A DNA stretch of 64,000 nt from IMG/VR virus record IMGVR_UViG_3300048502_000015, positions 1 through 64,000 of that record; one strand, written 5' to 3'. Positions 59,614 to 60,630 of the stretch are shown here, piece by piece. Source of the DNA: a virus (Duplodnaviria; Caudoviricetes). A program made the translations under genes and the position numbers. A model generated the notes under the pieces. The model saw nothing but the letters and a program-made list of their open reading frames with translations, did no database searches and was not told the DNA's origin. Within the stretch, counting starts at the first letter, position 1; each line of letters starts with the position of its first letter.

Positions 59614-59614
59614 G

Positions 59615-59688
59615 TACCCCTGGAGAGATTCGAACTCCCGACCTAGCCGGTAGAAACGGCTTGCTCTAATCCACTGAGCTACAAAGGC
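59615..59688 (-). tRNA. tRNA-Arg (TCT)
   Basis: cloverleaf. Confidence 0.92.
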
Positions 59689-59754
59689 AAGATGGTTGTT
59701 TGTATTTTAGCGGCCATTCCATACCGCTTCTATAAGATATCATACTTCCAATTC

Positions 59755-59793
59755 AAAAAACAAGGCCCCAGAAATAAATTTCGGAGGCCCTTG
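59755..59793 (-). terminator. intrinsic terminator of putative attenuator
   Basis: CAAGGGCCTCCGAAAT-TT-ATTTCTGGGGCCTTG-TTTTTT. Confidence 0.75.
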
Positions 59794-59819
59794 GGTCCAA
59801 GCATATTGGTTCCCAAGGA

Positions 59820-59879
59820 TTACAAGGCAAAGCCTCTTTGCGAATAATTCGGTAGTAATACTGGATCAGACATGTTCAT
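59820..59879 (-). CDS. 19-aa leader peptide MNMSDPVLLPNYSQRGFAL
   Basis: starts 8 nt after -10 box; precedes alternative hairpins. Confidence 0.6.
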   Translation of the reverse strand: MNMSDPVLLPNYSQRGFAL

Positions 59880-59887
59880 ATATTATC

Positions 59888-59917
59888 AGTGTAGCATATT
59901 CTATTTTGTAGTGTCAA
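59888..59917 (-). promoter_or_regulatory. promoter TTGACA-18-TACACT at head of tRNA array
   Basis: near-consensus with TG extension. Confidence 0.75.
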
Positions 59918-60054
59918 TGAGGAATTAATTTGTGGGGCCGTCCGCGATAATCATCTATACCAACGATCAGTCCATGGTCCAACAGTAGCGCTCCATATGA
60001 AAATTCCAATCCAACATATGATAACACCGCTAAATGTGATAACAAGCACTTCAA

Positions 60055-60630
60055 TCATTCAGTCCTCCTTGTAGACCTTGAGTACCCGTCCGGCAATAAA
60101 ACACCTTCAAGCGGAACGACTGCACCATGCGCGCGAAACGCCTCAGAGAACGCGTCCAGATCGCACCCGTAGTAGATGACAGCACAAGACATTGGGGCGC
60201 CTTTGTGGTCCGGTCTTCCTGCGATATAGAATTTGACCCGAGGTTCGTAGAGGAAGCAAACTGCGGCGGCTCGCGGATACACGAAGCGTTTCCAATGGCT
60301 GGTGTTGGTAGCGACTGGGACGAGCGCGATGACCTCTGATCCTGCGGCCGCTGCCTCTGCGATCCGCGCGAACCAGTCCAGGATCCGAGTGCCCCTCTGT
60401 TGGTCGGAACCGTACGGCGGGTTGACATAGATCCGTTGGTAGTCCCACGACTCAGCCAGGCCATCGTGCTCGGGGAGTTCGTAGCTGACGCGCGCGCCCA
60501 CCACCGAGTGAGCATTGGAGCACGGGTCGAGATCAATGTCGCCTCCGAACGTCCGTCGGACGGACGCGAGAAGCGCAGGTGGTGTGCACCAATCCTTCGT
60601 CTCAGTGACTGATTGTCGGCCTGCGGTCAT
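60055..60630 (-). CDS. DNA N6-adenine methyltransferase (phage type)
   Basis: WCTP..DLDPC..DGL..YVNPPYG. Confidence 0.85.
   Translation of the reverse strand: MTAGRQSVTETKDWCTPPALLASVRRTFGGDIDLDPCSNAHSVVGARVSYELPEHDGLAESWDYQRIYVNPPYGSDQQRGTRILDWFARIAEAAAAGSEVIALVPVATNTSHWKRFVYPRAAAVCFLYEPRVKFYIAGRPDHKGAPMSCAVIYYGCDLDAFSEAFRAHGAVVPLEGVLLPDGYSRSTRRTE

Follow-up and report, generated by a model that had tools for sequence, protein, structure and literature searches.

What large phage tRNA sets are for, and how their timing and dosage are set, is an old open question; the answers offered so far are compensation for codon usage and evasion of host anticodon nucleases. The locus described here raises a more particular one: what might a promoter, a tiny open reading frame (ORF) and a set of mutually exclusive RNA structures be doing at the head of a tRNA array? 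The window – the whole stretch of DNA that was analysed, comprising the first 64 kb (64,000 nt) of a complete 160,424-bp virus record – carries on its minus strand an array of 34 tRNA genes and a tmRNA, which runs from position 59688 down to 43751, and the candidate switch, read on the same strand, forms the upstream end of this array. A preliminary description had named a promoter, then a near-leaderless 19-codon ORF, then exclusive structures, and every one of these elements can be found on the minus strand. The array opens with tRNA-Arg(UCU) (anticodon tct; 59614–59688, minus strand; Rfam tRNA, 61 bits), which alone among the genes lies wholly between the switch and P2, the promoter that comes next. 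Contigs from two other samples contain the 500 nt at the locus in identical form, so the leader locus is no assembly artefact; a near-identical copy of the leader from other samples contributed no added variation.

The upstream promoter, P1 (59888–59917, minus strand), consists of TTGACA (59917–59912), an 18-nt spacer, TG (59896–59895) and TACACT (59893–59888), that is, an extended -10 promoter scoring 10/12; an alternative extended -10, TGaTAATAT at 59888–59880, overlaps it. P2 (59584–59613, minus strand; TTGACA, an 18-nt spacer, TG and TATACT; 11/12) starts 1 nt past the 3′ end of tRNA-Arg(UCU). When both strands of the 160-kb genome were scanned with the pattern TTGAC[AT]-N14-16-TGnTAnnnT, two sites alone were returned, P1 and P2, and these two best host-type promoters of the phage bracket tRNA-Arg(UCU). 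Since they are the sole full-consensus promoters in 160 kb, P1 is unlikely to serve just the expression of a 19-residue peptide. P2 had been described as a bypass that leaves only part of the output gated, and the comparison introduced below bears this out: of 14 array heads, 11 have a promoter immediately after the 3′ end of tRNA-Arg, and in L022, L033 and L087 this promoter is degenerate, which means that at most tRNA-Arg and a share of the array would be gated.

Upstream of P1, within 59951–60630, a gene for a Dam-type N6-adenine methyltransferase (60055–60630) lies in an island of 59% G+C, in a genome of 46% G+C. It was probably acquired, given this composition, and is translationally coupled through a TGA/ATG overlap and AAGGAGG to a 35-codon hydrophobic ORF (59951–60058). 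The end of that ORF lies 34 nt from P1, with no terminator in between.

Downstream of P1 comes the leader ORF, with 19 codons and a TAA stop (MNMSDPVLLPNYSQRGFAL; 59820–59879, minus strand; TAA at 59822–59820). Its ATG at 59879 is 8 nt past the -10 hexamer of P1, which predicts a 5′ UTR of 0–2 nt; it is a second in-frame ATG, at 59873, that lines up with the start in the relative L080. No Shine–Dalgarno sequence precedes the leader ORF in any of the 14 sequences compared, whereas the neighbouring 35-codon gene of the window has its AAGGAGG. The preliminary description had pointed to a richness in A/T-ending codons; the count is true (11 of 19) but uninformative, as the genome-wide third-position A+T of 0.567 makes it ordinary.

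Three structures can be drawn past the stop codon, all on the minus strand. Hairpin A (59789–59818), the candidate antiterminator, starts 1 nt past the stop and combines a CCUUGGG/CCCAAGG stem with an apical CCAA/UUGG helix (-13.6 kcal/mol). Hairpin B (59765–59788; GCCUC/GGGGC plus GAAA/UUUC; -8.5 kcal/mol) is the terminator core left when A has formed, and it ends 4 nt short of the U-tract. The full terminator T (59755–59793; CAAGG(G)CCUC...GGGGCCUUG; -15.1 kcal/mol) has its stem at 59793–59761 and its six uridines at 59760–59755: CAAGG from the 3′ arm of A pairs with CCUUG (59765–59761) atop B, and the resulting 9-bp stem abuts U6, termination itself being predicted. A terminator that shares one arm with the antiterminator and is followed by U6, as had been claimed, is thus found in the window. 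The pairing of GAGGC with GCCUC, by which the preliminary description had extended the antiterminator, fared differently: it is not conserved in the relatives, and in the window it is predicted only as a transient co-transcriptional intermediate.

Seen in one genome, this arrangement is no rarer than chance. The whole window leader folds no better than its shuffles (z -1.35), and the 160-kb genome contains two combinations of a double hairpin with a U-rich tail, where dinucleotide shuffles lead one to expect 1.55. At or above the gathering threshold, the Rfam 15 families – the T-box and known leaders among them – matched only tRNA over the element. The best of the other matches, a sub-threshold one to Spot_42 (window 59757–59860, minus strand; 27 bits, where the threshold is 80; E 0.006), probably reflects a shared shape of several hairpins and a terminator, not homology. 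The fold z-score and the double-hairpin count are what one would expect if the ORF and hairpins were accidents of an intergenic spacer, a reading against which only comparison can speak.

Relatives of the leader were reached by a single route. A blastn search of GenBank phages in distant mode gave tRNA-level matches only and no relative of the leader, and exact-pattern scans of viral contigs for the tRNA 3′ end, the tRNA–promoter junction and the terminator tail gave unrelated phages or random coding matches. The relatives were obtained solely via homologues of the ribonucleotide reductase (RNR), whose gene lies 2.3 kb upstream of the locus; these homologues came from viral and metagenome contigs and, via the protein clusters of the RNR, from Logan, JGI and ENA assemblies. 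Thirteen distinct relatives, with RNRs 68–75% identical, share the same array head – RNR, a few variable genes, tRNA-Arg(tct), tRNA-Tyr, tRNA-Leu and so on – and all comparative counts given here refer to 14 sequences, the window included. The nearest cultured phages by RNR (Streptomyces BRock-like phages and Tunturiibacter Tunturi_3; 52–54%) show no synteny and so give no host assignment. The RNR large subunit of the window has 562 aa and is intein-free; those of several relatives (P0018, P0035, P0048, P0050 and P0097) have 830–984 residues and include homing-endonuclease/intein domains (PF14528, PF05204 and PF14890). Inside the arrays of two relatives, ARAGORN reported tRNA-like genes with a two-base ‘anticodon’ (L077:11352–11437 and L085:16301–16396).

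The leaders of these relatives can no longer be aligned with that of the window by BLAST, so features common to them are selected or structural. As MAFFT placed hairpin A out of register, its arms were annotated by hand and then verified by script. It should be borne in mind that the relatives are not phylogenetically independent, so that probability products overstate significance.

An ATG ORF of 17–25 codons is found in all 14 sequences, with TAA, TAG and TGA all in use as stops. In six of them, the window among these, the ATG lies 5–8 nt past a TG-extended -10 (e.g. TGcTAGAAT), a spacing consistent with leaderless mRNA; the rest have either a predicted leader longer by a few nucleotides or an additional promoter upstream. 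A subfamily (L004:12094–12290; L079, L080, L082 and L083) has an extra upstream promoter and a long hairpin of 12–13 bp with UUAAAACUAG before the leader ORF, an element that the window lacks. Inside the 14 ORFs, there are 0 in-frame stops, compared with 23 and 12 in the other two frames. The encoded peptides are nearly unrelated: beyond Met, they share a third residue that is often Tyr or His, and a loose, faint K-Q-x-G motif whose Gly codons vary among the relatives. The comparison nonetheless marks this as a selected and maintained short ORF right behind a promoter, predicted to be translated.

Neither an Arg codon nor any other codon or amino-acid run is conserved in the 14 leaders – AGA appears once in the window and not at all in the relatives – and an Arg-specific or array-mirroring codon content was considered and rejected, as no codon is enriched across the family and usage is ordinary. 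The first 30 nt of the ORF are unstructured (mean -1.6 kcal/mol, z +0.19), and a conserved hairpin, H0, occupies the last 33 nt, about 10 codons (mean z across the family -2.0; e.g. window 59820–59852, L022:11203–11235 and L080:10363–10395). In the window, H0 is weak (GAGGC/GCCUU; 59824–59836, minus strand; z -0.7). It pairs only within itself and leaves the 5′ arm of hairpin A free, so there is no 1:2 pause or protector hairpin of the kind known from classical leaders. H0 could cause the polymerase to pause, or it could form one part of an sRNA-like body of three hairpins, and H0 together with the K-Q-x-G motif could belong to an RNA or a peptide with a function of its own.

In 14 of 14 sequences, the stop codon falls between -5 and +2 nt from hairpin A, while stop type and ORF length vary. 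With each ATG taken as fixed, the first in-frame stop would fall in this interval by chance with a probability of approximately 0.047 per sequence; the product over 14 sequences, 10^-18.7, is overstated, as the relatives are not independent and the ATG was chosen afterwards. Beyond the stop, hairpin A has a GC-rich basal stem of 6–9 bp and an apical part of 16–24 nt. Hairpin B either adjoins A without a gap or overlaps it by 3–5 nt (in L077, L080, L082 and L084, the 3′ arm of A overlaps the terminator core to this extent); it is short and GC-rich, often with a GAAA-type loop, and a tail rich in pyrimidines comes after it. The distance from the stop to the start of the terminator's 5′ arm is 30–39 nt throughout. 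Both hairpins occur with 13 distinct pairs of arms. For A, own arms pair at 6/6 positions and foreign arms at 3.08/6 on average; for B, the values are 5/5 and 2.51/5. This pattern identifies the arm changes in A and B as compensatory variation. It is such conservation in the relatives that goes beyond chance, and by this comparative measure the element is a conserved, selected module. With the layout present in 14/14, compensatory changes in its stems and an identical locus in two other samples, an accidental origin is disfavoured to the point of being barely credible, the unremarkable window z-score and the expected number of double hairpins notwithstanding.

A conserved module need not be a switch, and the folds bear on this directly. 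Computational folding of the alternatives, which the preliminary description had suggested as a check, sets A plus B against full T. Folded from stop to tail, 10 of the 14 sequences have their energy minimum at A plus B, and the remaining four have it at full T, even unmasked. If 12–15 nt from the stop are masked (the stop and the next 9–12 nt, mimicking a terminating ribosome), the terminator recruits the 3′ arm of A in all 14, gaining 3–6 bp. Across the family, predicted energies are -13 to -23 kcal/mol for A, -2 to -13.5 for the residual B and -12 to -25 for full T. The extension brings a mean gain of -8.67 kcal/mol. Exchanging tails between relatives reduces this gain to about -5.2 +/- 0.55, and none of 108 such exchanges attains the value observed; shuffling each tail gives -5.15, and shuffling the 3′ arm of A gives -4.65. 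The second partner of this arm therefore exceeds what base composition would supply. RNAalifold, applied to the plain MAFFT alignment, also returned the extended terminator as the consensus structure. In the predicted folds of all 14 sequences, then, the 3′ arm of A has two mutually exclusive partners, the 5′ arm of A and the terminator tail.

The sequence that follows T is less uniform. It ranges from U6 in the window to a U-poor tract or none in L004 and L082, is also poor in L084 and L021, and is moderate in several others; the idea that the U-tract count rises uniformly once the stem extends was rejected on the family counts. Poor or missing U-tracts in these four relatives suit a reading in which no termination takes place and the hairpins, as the 5′ leader of a tRNA-Arg precursor, act in processing or stability – as a nuclease entry site or a 5′ stabiliser – with an ORF that is incidental or untranslated. 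The same reading could accommodate a further conserved feature just before the tRNA: in most relatives (L077, L081, L083, L084 and others; the corresponding stretch of the window is 59701–59744), an extended -10 in the region 20–100 nt upstream precedes a small hairpin and then, 10–15 nt before the 5′ end of tRNA-Arg, the motif ACAUAGA. This motif may be a processing signal; ACAUAG is also found 3′ of P2, and over the window as a whole ACATAGA is not enriched (5 occurrences observed, 8 expected). We nevertheless judge a processing scaffold improbable, because the window has a textbook stem followed by U6, because the conservation of the reading frame and of the stop position makes sense only if the ORF is translated, and because nothing in such a scaffold demands mutually exclusive folds.

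A stronger challenge comes from the promoters found downstream of T. An extra TG-extended -10 (TGnTAAGAT/TAAGCT-like) lies between T and the tRNA in 10 of the 14 array heads, so tRNA-Arg there is independent of read-through. In the window, the interval from the U6 of the terminator to tRNA-Arg(UCU) measures 66 nt, and inspection by eye showed in it a weak -10-like TATGAT (59744–59739) and a GCGG/CCGC hairpin (59727–59710; both within 59710–59744, minus strand); TATGAT has neither TG nor a -35, and its position corresponds to that of the extended -10 promoter, hairpin and ACAUAGA motif of the relatives. Together with the promoter behind tRNA-Arg in 11/14, this arrangement agrees with the main rival explanation, namely that P1 drives a constitutive micro-transcription unit – a small RNA of about 125 nt with three hairpins, possibly encoding a micropeptide – whose ordinary terminator chiefly shields the tRNA promoters against transcription coming from upstream, the overlap between A and T being non-regulatory. 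Three tandem hairpins with a U tail are sRNA-like, as the weak sub-threshold match to Spot_42 may echo; there is a hairpin inside the ORF and a faint K-Q-x-G with varying Gly codons; and hairpin B alone already looks like a respectable terminator in the predictions for L079 and L081. Such a unit, however, leaves unexplained both the placement of the stop at hairpin A in 14/14, despite varying stop type and ORF length, and the sequence-specific second partner of A's 3′ arm. Its putative peptides are almost unconserved, and in L080 and L004, T lies 27–38 nt from the tRNA, with no space for a promoter, so tRNA-Arg transcripts there must cross T. We therefore regard it as unlikely, if well worth keeping in mind.

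The reading that we prefer takes the stop placement and the alternative folds together. Attenuation by a leader peptide is a known control for amino-acid genes, and the element may be a ribosome-operated transcription attenuator in which efficient translation leads to termination and slow translation to read-through, a view that we consider evenly poised between right and wrong. It would be placed between the phage's strongest host-type promoter, P1, and the first tRNA gene. P1 transcripts would start at or within about 2 nt of the AUG and, assuming leaderless translation, would be translated without a Shine–Dalgarno sequence. The only properties of the ORF that appear conserved are a length of 17–25 codons, a 5′ half free of structure, a hairpin towards its 3′ end and a stop touching the 5′ arm of A. 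A lead ribosome that keeps pace would sit on the stop codon while the polymerase makes the next 60 nt or so, thereby covering the 5′ arm of A; the 3′ arm of A would then pair with the CCUUG tail, the stem would abut the U-tract and transcription would stop. If the ribosome lags, stalls or was never loaded, A would form first, leaving only B, 4 nt off the U-tract, and the polymerase would read into tRNA-Arg(UCU), adding to the array transcription driven by P2. Given the lack of enrichment for any codon type, the element would gauge decoding speed in general and not the supply of one amino acid; and, as there are neither codon runs nor a 1:2 protector, absence of translation should give read-through.

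The physical premise has a precedent in Escherichia coli, where a terminating ribosome shields approximately 10 nt downstream of the A site and prevents the folding of hairpins that begin only a few nucleotides from the stop (PMC4824070). A terminator placed 5 bp past a stop codon falls there from ~90% to <10% efficiency, in a translation-dependent manner (PMC4824070). The same effect is proposed here on hairpin A, with T lying beyond the footprint. From this geometry we infer the direction of the response; host tRNA cleavage, which the preliminary description offered as a trigger, would be a putative cause of stalling. The same parts might give an opposite or different output: translation or a phage factor could stabilise A, or P1 transcripts could interfere with downstream promoters rather than set tRNA supply. 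In keeping with this, polarity was deduced from geometry alone, and a -35-like TTGATG or TTGACA of the downstream promoter sometimes overlaps the terminator tail in relatives (TTGACA in L084). A stop 0–2 nt from the 5′ arm of A, however, means that a terminating ribosome cannot leave A intact (PMC4824070), and we hold such alternative outputs to be quite improbable.

Set beside known attenuators, the candidate shares features with two classes. With trpL, hisL, pheL, leuL and thrL of E. coli, it has in common a promoter-proximal short ORF, a stop just before the 5′ arm of the antiterminator and a 3′ arm shared with an intrinsic terminator, as well as the expectation that a ribosome at the stop leads to termination. 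Unlike these leaders, it has no regulatory codon run and no pairing between segments 1 and 2, so that no super-attenuation is expected; its ORF is leaderless, or nearly so, and without a Shine–Dalgarno sequence; and the gene under its putative control is a phage tRNA. In the lack of a specialised codon run, it resembles attenuators of the whiB7 type (also the antibiotic sensors of vmlR, bmrCD and mef/mel), which likewise combine an upstream ORF (uORF) with a terminator and a competing antiterminator. Efficient translation of the mycobacterial whiB7 uORF leads to a rho-independent terminator, and impaired translation to an antiterminator and read-through, with the amino-acid content of the uORF deciding which shortages are sensed (10.1101/2023.06.02.543512). 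By analogy, the phage element may be grouped functionally with such general translation-stress attenuators, although it has no sequence relationship to them, its target is a tRNA array and not a transcription factor or resistance gene, and its response is a prediction. Leaderless short ORFs that act as sensors are known from mycobacteria too, where polycysteine ORFs with runs of Cys codons gauge ribosome occupancy for downstream genes and affect their translation through masking of a Shine–Dalgarno sequence (10.1101/834739); the phage element, by contrast, would act by means of a terminator and has no codon run.

The nearest published stress-responsive tRNA array is the trn operon of Anabaena, whose 26 genes are induced by translational stress under the repressor TrcR, which binds direct repeats over the promoter (PMC8421152, PMC10272220). 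The logic is the same, but that array is cellular and its control rests on a protein repressor; attenuation, leader and terminator all go unmentioned in the 2021 paper on it. Our literature searches found no published attenuator before tRNA genes.

For this family of soil and peat phages with genomes of approximately 160–178 kb, the picture that emerges, which we put forward tentatively and with some doubt, is that of a leaderless mini-ORF serving as a gauge of decoding speed, whose lag – through codon–tRNA mismatch, starvation or host tRNA attack – would permit read-through into tRNA-Arg(UCU) and the array. If this is true, translation would feed back homeostatically on tRNA supply, a form of control for which we found no printed precedent among tRNA genes, and leader-peptide attenuation would extend from amino-acid and resistance genes to tRNA genes. 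The element would also be a compact, portable part of about 130 nt, in which the stop flush with the antiterminator yields clear mutational predictions. As a cis-acting sensor, it would place phage tRNA arrays under demand-driven control, exerted through the quality of decoding itself.
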